A stretch of 64,000 bases of DNA from Escherichia coli (lineage in GTDB: Bacteria > Pseudomonadota > Gammaproteobacteria > Enterobacterales > Enterobacteriaceae), in the NCBI RefSeq assembly GCF_003019035.1, contig NZ_CP027447.1; one strand, written 5' to 3'. A model generated the notes under the pieces. It searched no databases, was not told the origin of the DNA, and saw nothing but the letters and a program-made list of their open reading frames with translations. Positions 4,011 to 64,000 of the stretch are shown here, in pieces (the first letter of the stretch is position 1; each line of letters opens with the position of its first letter). The translations under genes were made by a program, and so were the position numbers.

Positions 4011-4763
4011 TCAGATAACGTCGATTTCAGCGACCGACGGGTAAATCCAGCTTGGGCGGAACGGCATACTGTCGATATCGTCGAGCGACGAAACACCAGA
4101 AAGCACCAGAATCGTCTCCAGACCCGCCTGGAAGCCCGCCAGAATATCGGTACGCAGGTTATCGCCGACAATCACCGTTTCTTCCGAATGCGCCTGCATT
4201 TTGTTTAATGCCGCGCGGATGATCCACGGACTCGGCTTACCAACATAGAACGGTTTACGTCCGGAGATTTTTTCGATGCCTGCACACAACGCGCCACAGG
4301 CCGGATAAAAACCGCGCCCGTGGGTGTCCGGGTTGGTGGCGATAAAGCGTGCACCGTTAGCGACGAAATAGGCTGCTTTATGCATCATGTCCCAGTTGTA
4401 GGAACGCGTTTCGCCAACAATCACGAAATCAGGGTTCACATCGGTAATAGTGAAACCGGCTTTGTACAGTTCATGAATCAGTGCGCCTTCGCCCACCACA
4501 TACGCTTTCTTGCCTTCCTGGCGACGCAGGAAATCGGCGGTCGCCATTGCAGAGGTATAAAACACGCTGTCAGGTACATCGACACCGGCAGTGGCAAAGC
4601 GGTTCGCCAGATCTTGCCCGGTCTGCGAAGGATAGTTGGTCAGCAACACCAGCGGCAGGCCTTTATCCATAATCCCGTGCAAAAATTCCGCTGCACCCGG
4701 TACGGCGACGTTATCGTGCATCAGCACGCCGTCGATATCGCAAATTACATTTTTAATGGTCAT
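4011..4763 (-). CDS. nagD: UMP phosphatase, HAD superfamily
   Basis: 250 aa starting MTIKNVICDIDGVL (HAD DxDGV motif); conserved position after nagC. Confidence 0.9.
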   Translation of the reverse strand: MTIKNVICDIDGVLMHDNVAVPGAAEFLHGIMDKGLPLVLLTNYPSQTGQDLANRFATAGVDVPDSVFYTSAMATADFLRRQEGKKAYVVGEGALIHELYKAGFTITDVNPDFVIVGETRSYNWDMMHKAAYFVANGARFIATNPDTHGRGFYPACGALCAGIEKISGRKPFYVGKPSPWIIRAALNKMQAHSEETVIVGDNLRTDILAGFQAGLETILVLSGVSSLDDIDSMPFRPSWIYPSVAEIDVI

Positions 4764-4810
4764 GGACTACCCAGAATATTGACAACAATAAGCGCCACTA
4801 TAAAAGCACA

Positions 4811-6031
4811 TTAATTTTCCAGCAAATGCTGGAGCAAAATACCGTTGAGCATGGCGCGTTTTACCAGCGCAAAAGCGCCGATTGCCGAGCGGTGATCCAG
4901 CTCAGAACGTACCACCGGCAGATTAGTGCGAAACGCCTTCAGCGCCTGGGTATTAATGCAGCTTTCAATAGCAGGGAGCAGCACTTTATCGGCTTCGGTG
5001 ATTTCACCAGCAATAACAATTTTTTGCGGATTAAATAAGTTGATAGCAATGGCGATGGTTTTACCCAGATGACGACCGACATACTCAATCACTTCCGAGG
5101 CCAGGCTATCGCCTTTGTTCGCGGCTTTGCAGATAGTTTTGATGGTGCAGTCGTCCAGTGGCACACGGCTCTGGTAGCCCTGCTTTAACAGATTCAACAC
5201 CCGTTGTTCAATGGCAGCGTTGGCGGCGATAGTTTCCAGGCAGCCAAAGTTGCCACAGTGGCAGCGTTCACCCAGCGGTTCGACCTGAATATGGCCAATT
5301 TCACCGACGTTGCCGTTGCGCCCGATAAAAATTCGCCCGTTAGAGATAATCCCGGCCCCGGTTCCACGATGGACACGCACCAGAATGGAGTCTTCGCAAT
5401 CCTGACTTGCACCGAAGTAGTGCTCTGCCAGCGCCAGACTGCGGATATCGTGGCCGACAAAACAGGTCACTTTAAAACGTTCTTCCAGTGCTTCTACCAG
5501 CCCCCAGTTTTCTACCTGAATATGCGGCATGTAATGAATTTTGCCGCTGTCCGGGTCAACAAGTCCTGGCAGGATCACGGAAATGGCGATCAGCTCGCGC
5601 AGTTTGCGCTGGTAGCTATCAATAAACTGAGCAATGGCGTTAAGCAGGGCATGTTCCAGCGTCTGCTGGGTACGTTCCGGCAGCGGGTAATGTTCTTCTG
5701 CCAGCACTTTGCTACTAAGATCAAACAGAGTGATGGTGGCGTCGTGACGACCAAGCCGTACGCCGATTGCGTGGAAATTGCGGGTTTCGGTGACGATAGA
5801 GATAGCGCGGCGGCCCCCGGTGGAGGCCTGCTGATCAACTTCTTTGATCAGCCCGCGTTCGATAAGCTGACGCGTAATTTTGGTTACGCTGGCGGGGGCA
5901 AGCTGACTTTGCTCGGCAATCTGAATCCGCGAGATTGGTCCGTACTGGTCAATCAGGCGATAAACCGCCGCGCTGTTAAGCTGTTTTACGAGATCAACAT
6001 TACCTATCTGAGCTTGTCCGCCTGGTGTCAT
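4811..6031 (-). CDS. nagC: N-acetylglucosamine repressor, ROK family
   Basis: 406 aa, N-terminal HTH plus ROK sugar-kinase-like fold; nag operon context. Confidence 0.9.
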   Translation of the reverse strand: MTPGGQAQIGNVDLVKQLNSAAVYRLIDQYGPISRIQIAEQSQLAPASVTKITRQLIERGLIKEVDQQASTGGRRAISIVTETRNFHAIGVRLGRHDATITLFDLSSKVLAEEHYPLPERTQQTLEHALLNAIAQFIDSYQRKLRELIAISVILPGLVDPDSGKIHYMPHIQVENWGLVEALEERFKVTCFVGHDIRSLALAEHYFGASQDCEDSILVRVHRGTGAGIISNGRIFIGRNGNVGEIGHIQVEPLGERCHCGNFGCLETIAANAAIEQRVLNLLKQGYQSRVPLDDCTIKTICKAANKGDSLASEVIEYVGRHLGKTIAIAINLFNPQKIVIAGEITEADKVLLPAIESCINTQALKAFRTNLPVVRSELDHRSAIGAFALVKRAMLNGILLQHLLEN

Positions 6032-36800: not shown

Positions 36801-38063
36801 CGGACACAATATGCAGAGCCGCTGGTCGAAAGTCGCTATCTTTACGACCCGCTGGGCCGCAGGGTGGCAAAACGGGTGTGGCGGCGTGAACGGGACCTGA
36901 CGGGCTGGATGTCGCTGTCACGGAAACCGGAAGTGACCTGGTACGGCTGGGACGGCGACCGGCTGACCACGATACAGAACGACAGAACCCGCATCCAGAC
37001 GATTTATCAGCCGGGGAGCTTCACGCCACTCATCAGGGTCGAAACTGCCACCGGTGAGCTGGCGAAAACGCAGCGCCGCAGCCTGGCGGATGCGCTTCAG
37101 CAGTCCGGCGGCGAAAACGGTGGCAGTGTGGTGTTCCCGCCGGTGCTGGTGCAGATGCTCGACCGGCTGGAAAGTGAAATCCTGGCTGACCGGGTGAGTG
37201 AGGAAAGCCGCCGCTGGCTGGCATCGTGCGGCCTGACGGTGGCGCAGATGCAAAACCAGATGGACCCGGTGTACACACCGGCGCGAAAAATCCACCTGTA
37301 CCACTGCGACCATCGCGGCCTGCCGCTGGCGCTTGTCAGCACGGAAGGGGCAACAGAATGGTGCGCAGAATACGATGAGTGGGGCAACCTGCTGAATGAA
37401 GAGAACCCGCACCAGCTGCAGCAGCTCATCCGCCTGCCGGGTCAGCAGTATGATGAGGAGTCCGGCCTGTATTACAACCGCCACCGCTATTATGACCCGC
37501 TGCAGGGGCGGTATATCACTCAGGATCCTATTGGGCTGAAGGGGGGATGGAATTTTTATCAGTATCCGTTGAATCCGGTTCAGTATATAGATTCAATGGG
37601 ACTGGCATCAAAATATGGACACTTAAATAATGGCGGATATGGAGCGAGACCCAACAAACCGCCTACGCCCGATCCAAGTAAATTGCCAGACATAGCGAAA
37701 CAATTAAGACTGCCATATCCTATTGACCAGGCCAGTAGTGCGCCTAATGTTTTCAAAACATTCTTCAGAGCATTAAGCCCTTACGACTACACACTGTATT
37801 GCAGGAAGTGGGTAAAACCAAATCTGACTTGTACGCCACAGGATGATCCCCAGTATCCAGGGATGGATACAAAGACAGCAAGTGATTACCTGCCACAGAC
37901 AAATTGGCCAACAACTCAATTACCACCAGGATATACTTGTGCAGAACCCTATTTATTCCCAGACATTAATAAACCCGATGGGCCAGCAACAGCAGGGATA
38001 GATGATTTGGGTGAAATTTTAGCTAAAATGAAACAGAGAACATCGAGAGGAATAAGAAAATGA
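33864..38063 (+). CDS. rhsC: Rhs-family polymorphic toxin (N-terminal PAAR-like region, YD-repeat shell, DPIGL core end, ~175-aa variable C-terminal tip)
   Basis: 1399 aa; PAARQGD motif at residues 5-11; GC-rich repeat core; DPIGL at 37523-37537; sharp GC drop after it; located after ybfA as rhsC is in K-12. Confidence 0.9.
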
Positions 38064-40145: not shown

Positions 40146-40400
40146 ACTCAACGACGCAAACCGAATAACCTGCCGCTGGCGCTTATCAGCACGGAAGGGG
40201 CAACAGAATGGTGCGCAGAATACGATGAATGGGGCAACCTGCTGAATGAAGAGAACCCGCACCAGCTGCAGCAGCTCATCCGCCTGCCGGGTCAGCAGTA
40301 TGATGAGGAGTCCGGCCTGTATTACAACCGCCACCGCTATTATGACCCGCTGCAGGGGCCAGGGAAAGATCACGTAACGCTGCTTTTTTGTACTAAATAA
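40146..40400 (+). pseudogene. start-less orphan Rhs core-end fragment with alternative 13-aa tip
   Basis: 40170-40358 is nearly identical to 37319-37507 of the intact rhs ([63 protein letters not shown]), then diverges to [13 protein letters not shown]; in-frame stop at 40143 and no start codon. Confidence 0.7.
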
Positions 40401-58982: not shown

Positions 58983-60200
58983 ATGAGTAGCGTAGATATT
59001 CTGGTCCCTGACCTGCCTGAATCCGTAGCCGATGCCACCGTCGCAACCTGGCATAAAAAACCCGGCGACGCAGTCGTACGTGATGAAGTGCTGGTAGAAA
59101 TCGAAACTGACAAAGTGGTACTGGAAGTACCGGCATCAGCAGACGGCATTCTGGATGCGGTTCTGGAAGATGAAGGTACAACGGTAACGTCTCGTCAGAT
59201 CCTTGGTCGCCTGCGTGAAGGCAACAGCGCGGGTAAAGAAACCAGCGCCAAATCTGAAGAGAAAGCGTCCACTCCGGCGCAACGCCAGCAGGCGTCTCTG
59301 GAAGAGCAAAACAACGATGCGTTAAGCCCGGCGATCCGTCGCCTGCTGGCTGAACATAACCTCGACGCCAGCGCCATTAAAGGCACCGGTGTGGGTGGTC
59401 GTCTGACCCGTGAAGATGTGGAAAAACATCTGGCGAAAGCCCCGGCGAAAGAGTCTGCTCCGGCAGCGGCTGCTCCGGCGGCGCAACCGGCCCTGGCTGC
59501 ACGTAGCGAAAAACGTGTGCCGATGACTCGCCTGCGTAAGCGTGTGGCAGAGCGTCTGCTGGAAGCGAAAAATTCCACCGCCATGCTGACCACGTTCAAC
59601 GAAGTCAACATGAAGCCGATTATGGATCTGCGTAAGCAGTACGGTGAAGCGTTTGAAAAACGCCACGGCATCCGTCTGGGCTTTATGTCCTTCTACGTGA
59701 AAGCGGTGGTTGAAGCCCTGAAACGTTACCCGGAAGTGAATGCGTCTATCGACGGTGATGATGTGGTCTACCACAACTATTTCGACGTCAGTATGGCGGT
59801 TTCTACGCCGCGCGGCCTGGTGACGCCGGTTCTGCGTGATGTGGATACCCTCGGCATGGCAGACATCGAGAAGAAAATTAAAGAGCTGGCAGTTAAAGGC
59901 CGTGACGGCAAGCTGACGGTTGAAGATCTGACCGGTGGTAACTTCACCATCACCAACGGTGGTGTGTTCGGTTCCCTGATGTCTACGCCGATCATCAACC
60001 CGCCGCAGAGCGCAATTCTGGGTATGCACGCTATCAAAGATCGTCCGATGGCGGTGAATGGTCAGGTTGAGATCCTGCCGATGATGTACCTGGCGCTGTC
60101 CTACGATCACCGTCTGATCGATGGTCGCGAATCCGTGGGCTTCCTGGTAACGATCAAAGAGTTGCTGGAAGATCCGACGCGTCTGCTGCTGGACGTGTAG
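58983..60200 (+). CDS. sucB: dihydrolipoyllysine-residue succinyltransferase (E2)
   Basis: 405 aa; lipoyl domain, Ala/Pro linker, catalytic DHRLIDG motif. Confidence 0.95.
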
Positions 60201-60222
60201 TAGTTTAAGTTTCACCTGCACT

Positions 60223-60253
60223 GTAGACCGACGTGGATAGGGTGTCGGTCTAC
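60223..60253 (+). other. perfect 10-bp stem-loop in the sucB-sucC spacer (possible mRNA processing or stability element)
   Basis: GTAGACCGAC-loop of 11-GTCGGTCTAC; no following T-run, so not a classic intrinsic terminator. Confidence 0.4.
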
Positions 60254-60293
60254 GGTTTAAAAGATAACGATTACTGAAGGATGGACAGAACAC

Positions 60294-61460
60294 ATGAACT
60301 TACATGAATATCAGGCAAAACAACTTTTTGCCCGCTATGGCTTACCAGCACCGGTGGGTTATGCCTGTACTACTCCGCGCGAAGCAGAAGAAGCCGCTTC
60401 AAAAATCGGTGCCGGTCCGTGGGTAGTGAAATGTCAGGTTCACGCTGGTGGCCGCGGTAAAGCGGGCGGTGTGAAAGTGGTAAACAGCAAAGAAGACATC
60501 CGTGCTTTTGCAGAAAACTGGCTGGGCAAGCGTCTGGTAACGTATCAAACAGATGCCAATGGCCAACCGGTTAACCAGATTCTGGTTGAAGCAGCGACCG
60601 ATATCGCTAAAGAGCTGTATCTCGGTGCCGTTGTAGACCGTAGTTCACGTCGCGTGGTCTTTATGGCCTCCACCGAAGGCGGCGTGGAAATCGAAAAAGT
60701 GGCGGAAGAAACTCCGCACCTGATCCACAAAGTTGCGCTTGATCCGCTGACTGGCCCGATGCCGTATCAGGGACGCGAGCTGGCGTTCAAACTGGGTCTG
60801 GAAGGTAAACTGGTTCAGCAGTTCACCAAAATCTTCATGGGCCTGGCGACCATTTTCCTGGAGCGCGACCTTGCTCTTATCGAAATTAACCCGCTGGTTA
60901 TTACCAAACAGGGCGATCTGATCTGCCTCGACGGCAAACTGGGTGCTGACGGCAACGCACTGTTCCGCCAGCCTGATCTGCGCGAAATGCGTGACCAGTC
61001 GCAGGAAGATCCGCGTGAAGCACAGGCTGCACAGTGGGAACTGAACTACGTTGCGCTGGACGGTAACATCGGTTGTATGGTTAACGGCGCAGGCCTGGCG
61101 ATGGGCACCATGGACATCGTTAAACTGCACGGCGGCGAACCGGCTAACTTCCTGGACGTTGGCGGCGGCGCAACCAAAGAGCGCGTAACCGAAGCGTTCA
61201 AAATCATCCTCTCTGACGACAAAGTGAAAGCCGTTCTGGTTAACATCTTCGGCGGTATCGTTCGTTGCGACCTGATCGCTGACGGTATCATCGGCGCGGT
61301 AGCGGAAGTGGGTGTTAACGTACCGGTCGTGGTACGTCTGGAAGGTAACAACGCCGAACTCGGCGCGAAGAAACTGGCTGACAGCGGCCTGAATATTATT
61401 GCAGCAAAAGGTCTGACGGATGCAGCTCAGCAGGTTGTTGCCGCAGTGGAGGGGAAATAA
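60294..61460 (+). CDS. sucC: succinyl-CoA synthetase beta subunit
   Basis: 388 aa from [18 protein letters not shown]. Confidence 0.95.
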
Positions 61461-62329
61461 TGTCCATTTTAATTGATAAAAACACCAAGGTTATCTGCCA
61501 GGGCTTTACCGGTAGCCAGGGGACTTTCCACTCAGAACAGGCTATTGCATACGGCACTAAAATGGTTGGCGGCGTAACCCCAGGTAAAGGCGGCACCACC
61601 CACCTCGGCCTGCCAGTGTTCAACACCGTGCGTGAAGCTGTTGCTGCTACTGGCGCTACCGCTTCTGTTATCTACGTACCAGCACCGTTCTGCAAAGACT
61701 CCATTCTGGAAGCTATTGATGCAGGCATCAAACTGATTATCACCATCACTGAAGGCATCCCGACGCTGGATATGCTGACCGTGAAGGTGAAACTGGATGA
61801 AGCGGGCGTTCGCATGATCGGCCCGAACTGCCCGGGCGTTATCACTCCGGGTGAATGCAAAATCGGTATCCAGCCTGGTCACATTCACAAACCGGGTAAA
61901 GTGGGTATCGTTTCCCGTTCCGGTACACTGACCTATGAAGCGGTTAAACAGACCACGGATTACGGTTTCGGTCAGTCGACCTGTGTTGGTATCGGCGGCG
62001 ACCCGATCCCTGGCTCTAACTTTATCGACATCCTCGAAATGTTCGAAAAAGATCCGCAGACCGAAGCGATCGTGATGATCGGTGAGATCGGCGGTAGCGC
62101 TGAAGAAGAAGCGGCTGCGTACATCAAAGAGCACGTTACCAAGCCTGTTGTGGGTTACATCGCTGGTGTGACTGCGCCGAAAGGCAAACGTATGGGCCAC
62201 GCGGGTGCGATCATTGCCGGTGGGAAAGGGACTGCGGATGAGAAATTCGCTGCTCTGGAAGCCGCAGGCGTGAAAACCGTTCGCAGCCTGGCTGATATCG
62301 GTGAAGCACTGAAAACTGTTCTGAAATAA
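61460..62329 (+). CDS. sucD: succinyl-CoA synthetase alpha subunit
   Basis: 289 aa; start overlaps the sucC stop. Confidence 0.95.
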
Positions 62330-62430
62330 ATATCTGTAATAAGAAATAGCCCTCGCCGCTTCCCTCTACAGGAATGGCGAAGGGCTGTCGGTTTCGACAT
62401 GGTTGGCCATCATATGATGGCCTTTTTTAT
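62330..62430 (+). ncRNA. sdhX: sdhX-type sRNA (RybD) in the sucD 3' UTR with shared terminator
   Basis: 3' UTR contains GCCCTCGCC...GGCGAAGGGC stem and terminal GGCCATCATATGATGGCC hairpin plus TTTTTT; position matches the known 3'UTR-derived sRNA. Confidence 0.5.
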
Positions 62431-63824
62431 GCCTTAAACGTTAACCACGGTCGAAATCTGACCGCAGGTTGAATTAATCCGGCTTCTTGTTGGGCTTCGA
62501 TAACCGGACCAATATCTTTATAAGCCGCTGGCGCTTCTTCAAGACGTCGTTCTTCGCGCAATGTGACGCATTGCCACGGCAGCGTTGACTCTTCAGTCGC
62601 GCTTGAGCGCATGGCCTGCCGACGCTGGCTGCGTCCTGCTCCGTGACTGCAAGACCACAGCCACTCCGGGTTGCCGCAACCAACCGCAAGCCACGAATAA
62701 TCACCCATGGAACCGGGGATTAACGCCAGATCGCCCGCGCGTGCCGGTGTTGCACCTTTGCGATGAATATTCATTTCATGCTCGTGAAGGATGATGTTAT
62801 GCGGCACATCCACCACCAGATGTGAATCATCCTGATGAAATAAATCGGCAAAACATACGCGAACCATTTCCGCAATGGTCACGCGATTTAACCATGCGTA
62901 ACGCGCCGCCATTCCCATCGCTTGTAGATATTCCTCCGCCAGTCCGCCTGCCAGGCCATATAACCCGCTTTGTGGATGTTTATGTCCGGTGGGCCATTCA
63001 GCACGGGCGCGATCCATCCAGCGTCTTCCGACGTAAAAGCCAACATCTCGCGATCCACTGTGGATCATCACCACAATATCGCCCGTTTTCAGCCCTTGTT
63101 GCCAGGCAACATGGCGATCAACCACGCTATCAACCACCTGAAGTTCAATAAAATGATTACCTGAACCCGGCGTACCAAGACAAGGATCGCGGAGTAATGG
63201 GCGGTCCGTTACCAGCAGGGCGGGTGGGGCATAACGCGAATGACTGTTATGCTCGTTAAGCCCAATGCAGCGGTCAATCTCTTGTACCATTCGGGGGATA
63301 TTCGTGCGTGTCCAGAGACCTGCTGATGGCAAGGCTGACATGCACTCTGCCGGTCCGTCATCAAAAAGCGCGGTGAACGCCTGTGCGGATAACGGAACAT
63401 CGCGCTCATTTTGCAGTAGCACTTGCGTTAACCGCTGAGCGATGACGTCTTTATTCGCTTCGGCTTGCTCAAGTGTTAATCCGGTCGTCAGCAGCCGCAT
63501 GCCACAAGAAATATCGGTGCCGATGGCCGCAGGAATGACTAAATCCGGCGTAGAGGCGACTACCGCGCCAACGGGGACGCCATTGCCGGGATGAAAATCT
63601 GGCGTCGCACAGGTCTGGCGTACGTAACCTGGATGGTCTGGTATCTTCACTTCTGCAAAATCAAGCAGTTGTGTCACTGCTTTTTCTTCCAGCGGCAGTT
63701 CGTCCGGCAGCAGTACGTGGGCACTGGCTCCTGATGGACGACATAATGAAACAATATTGTTGGCGCGGGAAAGTTGGATCCCTTTGCGCAGAAAGGCTTT
63801 ATCAAGCCTTGAAAGATGATGCAT
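62427..63824 (-). CDS. RtcB-family RNA ligase paralog, 465 aa, with N-terminal extension
   Basis: Family motifs seen in the translation: IPAAIGTDISCGM, GTPGSGNHFIE, IHSGSRDVG, IPGSMGDYS, CSHGAGR, AYKDI; longer than the 408-aa canonical enzyme as I recall it. Confidence 0.85.
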   Translation of the reverse strand: MHHLSRLDKAFLRKGIQLSRANNIVSLCRPSGASAHVLLPDELPLEEKAVTQLLDFAEVKIPDHPGYVRQTCATPDFHPGNGVPVGAVVASTPDLVIPAAIGTDISCGMRLLTTGLTLEQAEANKDVIAQRLTQVLLQNERDVPLSAQAFTALFDDGPAECMSALPSAGLWTRTNIPRMVQEIDRCIGLNEHNSHSRYAPPALLVTDRPLLRDPCLGTPGSGNHFIELQVVDSVVDRHVAWQQGLKTGDIVVMIHSGSRDVGFYVGRRWMDRARAEWPTGHKHPQSGLYGLAGGLAEEYLQAMGMAARYAWLNRVTIAEMVRVCFADLFHQDDSHLVVDVPHNIILHEHEMNIHRKGATPARAGDLALIPGSMGDYSWLAVGCGNPEWLWSCSHGAGRSQRRQAMRSSATEESTLPWQCVTLREERRLEEAPAAYKDIGPVIEAQQEAGLIQPAVRFRPWLTFKA

Positions 63825-64000
63825 AACGCTGTCCTGAAATATAGACGTTAAACAACCCCCTTTATTGCGAGGGTAATTTTGTCTTTCCGGTCAGCAGCCA
63901 GCAAAAGGGAAAGAAAACGCGCGTAGTGTATGCAGCAATGACGATCAATACAAGATAAAAAAGACTATTAACAAACGGGGGTGTTATAAAAGGGGTCAGT

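Follow-up and report, generated by a model that had tools for sequence, protein, structure and literature searches.

SdhX, its terminator and a convergent RtcB-family gene at the end of the sdh-suc operon of Escherichia coli

Where an operon runs up against a gene on the opposite strand, does a single hairpin end the transcripts of both? The question is raised by the end of the sdhCDAB-sucABCD operon in the stretch of DNA analysed here (the window, 64,000 nucleotides of E. coli contig NZ_CP027447.1). A first-pass annotation of this DNA placed an sdhX-type small RNA (sRNA) after sucD and supposed that its terminator hairpin is shared with a convergent RtcB-like gene, so that readthrough from either side would generate RNA antisense to the neighbour.

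The sRNA and the terminator of the operon

By alignment with K-12 and by gene order, positions 62330-62430 are the known E. coli sRNA SdhX, with which the succinate dehydrogenase/succinyl-CoA operon ends. The sdhX-type sRNA proposed for this place is thus confirmed, since it stands in the right position after sucD and the stretch is identical to the K-12 MG1655 ncRNA sdhX (b4764, 765050-765150) at 99 of 101 positions, without gaps. The two mismatches are A62412, which lies in the loop of the terminator, and A62429, directly past the T-run; K-12, where sdhX is annotated directly downstream of sucD, has G at both. Upstream of sdhX the window carries sucA, sucB (odhB), sucC and sucD, the last ending in TAA at 62327-62329. 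Farther upstream, the corresponding locus of E. coli SCU-301 has sdhA and sdhB annotated, and a comparison of 2000 nt (62001-64000) shows this locus to be 100% identical to the window. Rfam scans of window positions 55000-64000 and of locus L002 7900-10500, with E up to 1 and 5, returned 0 matches, so the assignment rests on the K-12 alignment and synteny. The operon end comprises:

61460..62329, plus strand: sucD, last gene of sdhCDAB-sucABCD (open reading frame list; annotated sucD in the identical SCU-301 locus)
62330..62430, plus strand: sdhX (SdhX/RybD), 3'UTR-derived sRNA, equivalent of K-12 b4764
62348..62386, both strands: long imperfect hairpin in the 5' part of SdhX (-22.0 kcal/mol on the plus strand, -23.4 on the minus strand)
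62387-62398, plus strand: 4-bp mini-hairpin predicted by folding
62393..62403, plus strand: SdhX seed TTCGACATGGT (core CGACAT), located by sequence with the seed definition of PMC6393394
62405..62422, both strands: terminator stem-loop GGCCATC-ATAT-GATGGCC (GGCCATCATATGATGGCC), a perfect palindrome with a 7-bp stem (-11.5 kcal/mol)
62423..62428, plus strand: T6 run (TTTTTT) from the terminator scan, terminator of SdhX and of the sdh-suc operon and Hfq-binding 3' U-tail

The seed of SdhX was defined by Miyakoshi et al. as UUCGACAUGGU with the core CGACAU, located immediately 5' of the terminator stem, and it pairs with the start region of ackA (PMC6393394). The window holds an exact match to it at 62393-62403, just 5' of the stem. 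Loss of seed conservation had been named by the first-pass annotation as an observation that would speak against its proposal; in the comparison with K-12 sdhX, the seed is intact. Release of SdhX by RNase E processing, binding of Hfq, and repression of ackA and other mRNAs have been published for K-12 and Salmonella (PMC6393394). By analogy, the sdhCDAB-sucABCD transcript of the window strain would end at the intrinsic terminator 62405-62428, and RNase E would free from that 3' end an Hfq-binding SdhX whose seed would repress ackA and other mRNAs.

Folding of the 104-nt plus-strand RNA gives -41.3 kcal/mol (z = -5.6 versus dinucleotide shuffles), and the 7-bp GC-rich stem of this RNA, followed by U6, has the make-up of a Rho-independent terminator. 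K-12 Term-seq data (Adams et al. 2021, PMC7815308, supplementary file 1) contain a strong plus-strand 3' end at 765148, with scores of 19842 and 34704 in the two entries shown. This K-12 position, at which the U6 run ends, corresponds to window position 62428, the middle base of the RtcB stop codon, which is the 3' end expected for SdhX in the window strain.

A natural disruption of sdhX is present in E. coli FDAARGOS_944 (L006 ~4203-5000, at about window position 62402), where an IS1 element lies inside the seed after ...TTCGACATGG. The seed is there split from the terminator, and mngR lies beyond IS1.

An accessory RtcB-family gene at the edge of a variable segment

On the right-hand side, the junction is made up of the following features:

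63824..62427, minus strand: RtcB-family open reading frame (ORF) of 465 aa ending in ...WLTFKA, with its coding part at 62430..63824 (ORF list, Pfam)
62429..62427, minus strand: RtcB stop codon TAA, the reverse complement of T62427 T62428 A62429
62429..62433, both strands: boundary between the conserved sdh-suc/sdhX core and a variable right side (alignments)

The first-pass annotation had the terminator meeting the RtcB stop codon, and the contact proves even closer than described: the stop codon overlaps the final two T of the sdhX T-run, an overlap of 2 nt. Between the sucD and RtcB stop codons lie 97 nt. Were 62429 to carry the K-12 base G in place of A, the RtcB ORF would be 72 codons longer.

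Judged by its sequence, 63824..62427 encodes a genuine RtcB-family protein, a predicted solitary RNA ligase paralogue. Residues 63-464 match Pfam RtcB (PF01139, E = 1.6e-95); a 501-nt stretch is identical (100%) in SCU-301, where RefSeq annotates an 'RtcB family protein'; and in alignment with Thermus TTHA1785 and P. horikoshii RtcB, the motifs DISCG, GSGNHF, HSGSR, PHN and SHGAGR find their counterparts. From the roles assigned in published structures, we take these motifs to be the metal-binding Asp, Cys and His residues and the histidine nucleophile of HGAGR. Membership in the subfamilies of the E. coli rtcBA RtcB or the prfH-linked RtcB2 was considered and rejected: NCBIfam scores fall under the equivalog cut-offs (205 vs 407 bits for K-12-type RtcB, 168 vs 272 bits for PrfH-linked RtcB2), and the partner genes are missing, with rtcA, rtcR and prfH absent beside window-type RtcB, whose neighbours are sucD and hutU. 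The protein belongs to the same PF01139 fold family as E. coli RtcB and RtcB2 and keeps the metal-binding and histidine-nucleophile motifs, but at 465 aa it is nearer to the long form of Thermus and archaea, and its gene is solitary.

Of 5426 complete E. coli genomes, 300 carry RtcB (full-length in 289). Its neighbours are either sucD and the divergent hut operon (window type) or mngB and a LysR gene (strain 6EVA). In one species-representative scan, its relatives outside Escherichia were found in betaproteobacteria and Gilliamella at 57-63% identity, with the exception of one 'Citrobacter' metagenome bin at ~96% DNA identity. Because it is patchy in E. coli and, that bin aside, its relatives outside Escherichia are betaproteobacterial or from Gilliamella, we regard RtcB as an accessory gene that was probably acquired horizontally. 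The 757-nt gap between RtcB and hutU (window 63825-64000, on into L002 9626-10382) is very AT-rich, and 6EVA-type genomes share with it no more than the ~108 nt nearest RtcB (to window 63932); in the RtcB upstream region, promoter-like matches are no commoner than in shuffles and an Rfam search gave no match. Past this gap, window-type genomes carry a histidine-utilisation cluster (L002 10383-16501) consisting of hutU, a permease, hutD, hutI, hutG and an ammonia-lyase, and no such cluster was found in the K-12 sucD-cydA interval compared (L007, L016). The RtcB homologue of Snodgrassella alvi (L014 4001-4255) has an in-frame stop after 84 codons, which may mark a pseudogene or, the assembly being from a single cell, an error of sequencing.

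Queries of 133 nt spanning the junction, run against the 5426 complete E. coli genomes, found sdhX joined to mngR in 3883 (~72%), to the RtcB 3' end in 994 and to a TPR gene in 547, and these three classes together cover 5424 of the 5426. RtcB sequence beyond a remnant is joined to sucD in 156 of the 994 RtcB-junction genomes, and about 838 keep the decayed remnant only, for example O157:H7. The relics kept in these genomes next to the sdhX terminator, as seen in O157:H7 strain 2149 (L003 5233-5329), are a 45-nt piece from the 3' end that carries a 1-nt insertion and an internal piece of 57 nt (window 62427-62472 and 62644-62700), and a LysR-cobO-fumarase-dicarboxylate transporter cluster follows.

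In alignments, all three junction classes part within ~4 nt of the T-run; homology to the RtcB of 6EVA, or of cryptic-clade Escherichia (L009), begins at 62432, and homology to K-12 stops at ~62433. Because the three neighbour types diverge there, the sdhX terminator marks the left edge of a chromosomal segment that varies across E. coli and has three alternative contents. The convergent mngR stop begins 5 nt past the T-run in K-12 and BL21, which in K-12 is 2 nt past the annotated sdhX end. Since K-12 mngR adjoins the same terminator, a stop codon abutting it is peculiar neither to RtcB nor to the window strain. K-12 and the window strain thus share the sRNA (99/101), its seed, its terminator, its place after sucD and a convergent stop codon near the T-run. 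They differ in that RtcB replaces mngR, in that 2 nt of the RtcB stop fall within the T-run and the mngR stop begins 5 nt beyond it, and in A62429 (G in K-12), which creates the RtcB stop codon.

Two origins of this stop codon are conceivable. It could have been borrowed from the T-run through a deletion that fused RtcB to the terminator: the last RtcB codon in the window is GCA (Ala), and RtcB of 6EVA and of cryptic-clade Escherichia (L009) ends in ...TFKG-TAA with its own symmetric terminator, shared with mngB. This origin is weakened because distant RtcB homologues mostly end in ...TFKA*, as window RtcB does, and because the K-12 mngB 3' end and its flank are no simple derivative of the 6EVA arrangement. 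Alternatively, RtcB could have arrived with GCA-TAA and have abutted the sdhX terminator from the start.

Termination on the minus strand

The proposal of a shared terminator stands in one part and fails in another. A palindromic hairpin does lie between the convergent genes, and at 62405-62422 it has equal energy on both strands, but the U-run that would complete a terminator is present on the plus strand only; past the hairpin, the minus strand reads AACCAUGUCGAAACC (AACCATGTCG), with no U-run. A canonical two-way intrinsic terminator (A-run 5' and T-run 3' of the hairpin) was therefore rejected for this site, whose plus strand has TTTTTT and whose minus strand has no such run. Strain 6EVA carries between convergent mngB and RtcB a symmetric terminator, aataatTTCAGGCCATCttcgGATGGCCTGAAattgtt (L004 5885-5920), with A/T-rich runs on both sides. 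The 6EVA site is a textbook two-way terminator, whereas the site in the window is one-sided.

A separate hairpin (62386-62348, -23.4 kcal/mol), the reverse complement of the SdhX 5' hairpin, forms on the minus strand ~18 to ~40 nt past the terminator stem and leads into a U-rich tract:

62347..62338, minus strand: U-rich tract AUUUCUUAUU, directly after the minus-strand hairpin and ending 8 nt from the sucD stop

On its sequence, 62386-62338 is a candidate intrinsic terminator for RtcB and, in K-12, for mngR. It is not a textbook example, with a long imperfect hairpin and a tail starting with A. By hairpin energy it comes second among 507 minus-strand sites of the 64-kb window that combine a hairpin with a T-rich tail, in a scan that admitted all hairpin lengths and gives a loose ranking, with many sites inside coding sequences at -18 to -22 kcal/mol. 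Elsewhere on the minus strand of the window, a 40-nt sequence that can fold into a hairpin occurs in two identical copies with one and the same T-rich tail (GACCCGGCAGGCGGATGAGCTGCTGCAGCTGGTGCGGGTT TCTTCATTCA), at ~37402-37445 and ~40252-40295; these repeats, 2850 nt apart, point to a duplicated gene segment there.

K-12 data bear on both strands. The curated Term-seq list (PMC7815308) contains no minus-strand 3' end near sdhX, which is probably uninformative, since expression of mngR was probably too low under the conditions used. On the plus strand, a K-12 Rho termination region at 765604 (+) lies antisense to mngR; because its downstream counting window takes in the mngA start, it is compatible with plus-strand readthrough in K-12 and no proof of it. 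The further expectation of the first-pass annotation, that plus-strand readthrough would be antisense to the neighbour, agrees with this region.

The reading that we favour, and consider likely, is of an sdhX locus with a terminator (62405-62428) that serves the plus strand only, set at the edge of a variable segment, with RtcB ending at a separate minus-strand site and the two 3' ends overlapping by ~90 nt. It builds on the observed identity and coordinates of sdhX, on the junction statistics and on the K-12 plus-strand 3' end; the minus-strand end site, and any antisense consequence, we infer from sequence. The accessory RtcB ORF reaches the segment edge and draws its stop codon from the last two T of the T-run and the next A. 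The 62405-62422 hairpin would work one way, and RtcB transcripts, if made, would pass through it and most likely end at 62386-62338, in the reverse complement of the SdhX 5' hairpin and its U-rich tract; alternatively, Rho or polymerase collision would end them. The intergenic region would then consist of two face-to-face terminators, each stop codon a few nt from the U-tract of the other, and the 3'UTR of the RtcB mRNA would be antisense to SdhX with full complementarity. We prefer this arrangement because the tail of the 62405-62422 hairpin on the minus strand has no U-run and a stronger hairpin with a U-rich tract lies beyond.

If the 62405-62422 hairpin were truly bidirectional, perhaps with head-on polymerase collisions, neither side would produce antisense RNA. 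A perfect palindrome between convergent genes invites this view, and bidirectional terminators are common in E. coli (306 of 704 convergent pairs), do without canonical intrinsic features and reportedly do not look like intrinsic terminators, as far as the work of Ju et al. 2019 is relayed in bioRxiv 10.1101/2022.10.23.513370 and 10.64898/2026.03.23.713779, so that for the hairpin in the window sequence rules do not decide against two-way use. The minus-strand tail AACCAUGUCGAAACC, however, has no U-run, and the RtcB/mngB terminator of 6EVA, with its symmetric A-run, hairpin and T-run, looks different from the site in the window. Moreover, judging by the extent of ribosome footprints, the 5' arm of the stem would be covered by a ribosome that terminates at the UAA, 4 nt upstream. 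On balance, we judge a two-way hairpin quite unlikely. Slightly less doubtful, if still unlikely, is that RtcB transcription ends Rho-dependently well inside the sucD antisense and so leaves a long RNA antisense to the 3' end of sucD: no ribosomes translate the RNA past the stop codon, both downstream hairpins fall short of a textbook terminator when read on the minus strand, and Rho commonly ends antisense transcription, with many antisense Rho regions in the K-12 list, but the -23.4 kcal/mol hairpin with its U-rich tract makes a reasonable intrinsic site.

A different kind of explanation holds that the juxtaposition is a neutral by-product of an insertion/deletion hotspot and has no regulatory effect, with RtcB poorly expressed and the two transcripts rarely meeting. 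We find this fairly probable, given one boundary common to three alternative neighbours, a decayed remnant as all that is left in most RtcB-junction genomes, relatives that outside Escherichia are betaproteobacterial or from Gilliamella, and an AT-rich upstream region with promoter-like matches at shuffle frequency. Neutrality is compatible with face-to-face terminators rather than opposed to them.

Known counterparts and possible consequences

The locus holds a known sRNA in an ordinary convergent-gene arrangement. Bidirectional or overlapping terminators of E. coli, to the extent that Ju et al. 2019 is represented in the same two preprints, likewise combine a convergent pair, a short gap, a palindromic hairpin and an expected overlap of 3' ends; here, in contrast, one side is a characterised Hfq sRNA, and the U-run is on one strand only. 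CpxQ and NarS (PMC6393394, PMC7038943) are also processed mRNA 3' ends that use the intrinsic terminator of their operon, with no difference in kind from SdhX. Already established, then, are the sRNA itself, the use of an operon terminator by 3'UTR-derived sRNAs, overlapping convergent termination (hundreds of pairs) and the abutment with mngR in K-12. What is specific here is small: another accessory neighbour, a 2-nt overlap of stop codon and U-run, and a stop that depends on A62429.

Face-to-face terminators would have one consequence for the sRNA. Because the locus leaves the convergent mRNA no space for a separate 3'UTR, its antisense tail would cover nearly all of SdhX, including the seed. 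That this tail, on the mRNA of RtcB or of the far more widespread mngR (~72% of genomes), acts as a cis-encoded sponge for SdhX or as an RNase III substrate is very unlikely in our estimation. If it were true, switching on the accessory gene would leave less active SdhX and lift the repression of ackA, or abundant SdhX would destabilise the mRNA of its neighbour. Literature searches on mngR with SdhX and on mngR with the sucD terminator found nothing.

This strain carries a different gene downstream than K-12 does, and its SdhX is intact, seed and terminator included. The arrangement otherwise matters little; the point of some interest is that convergent transcripts antisense to SdhX could modulate a regulator of acetate metabolism.
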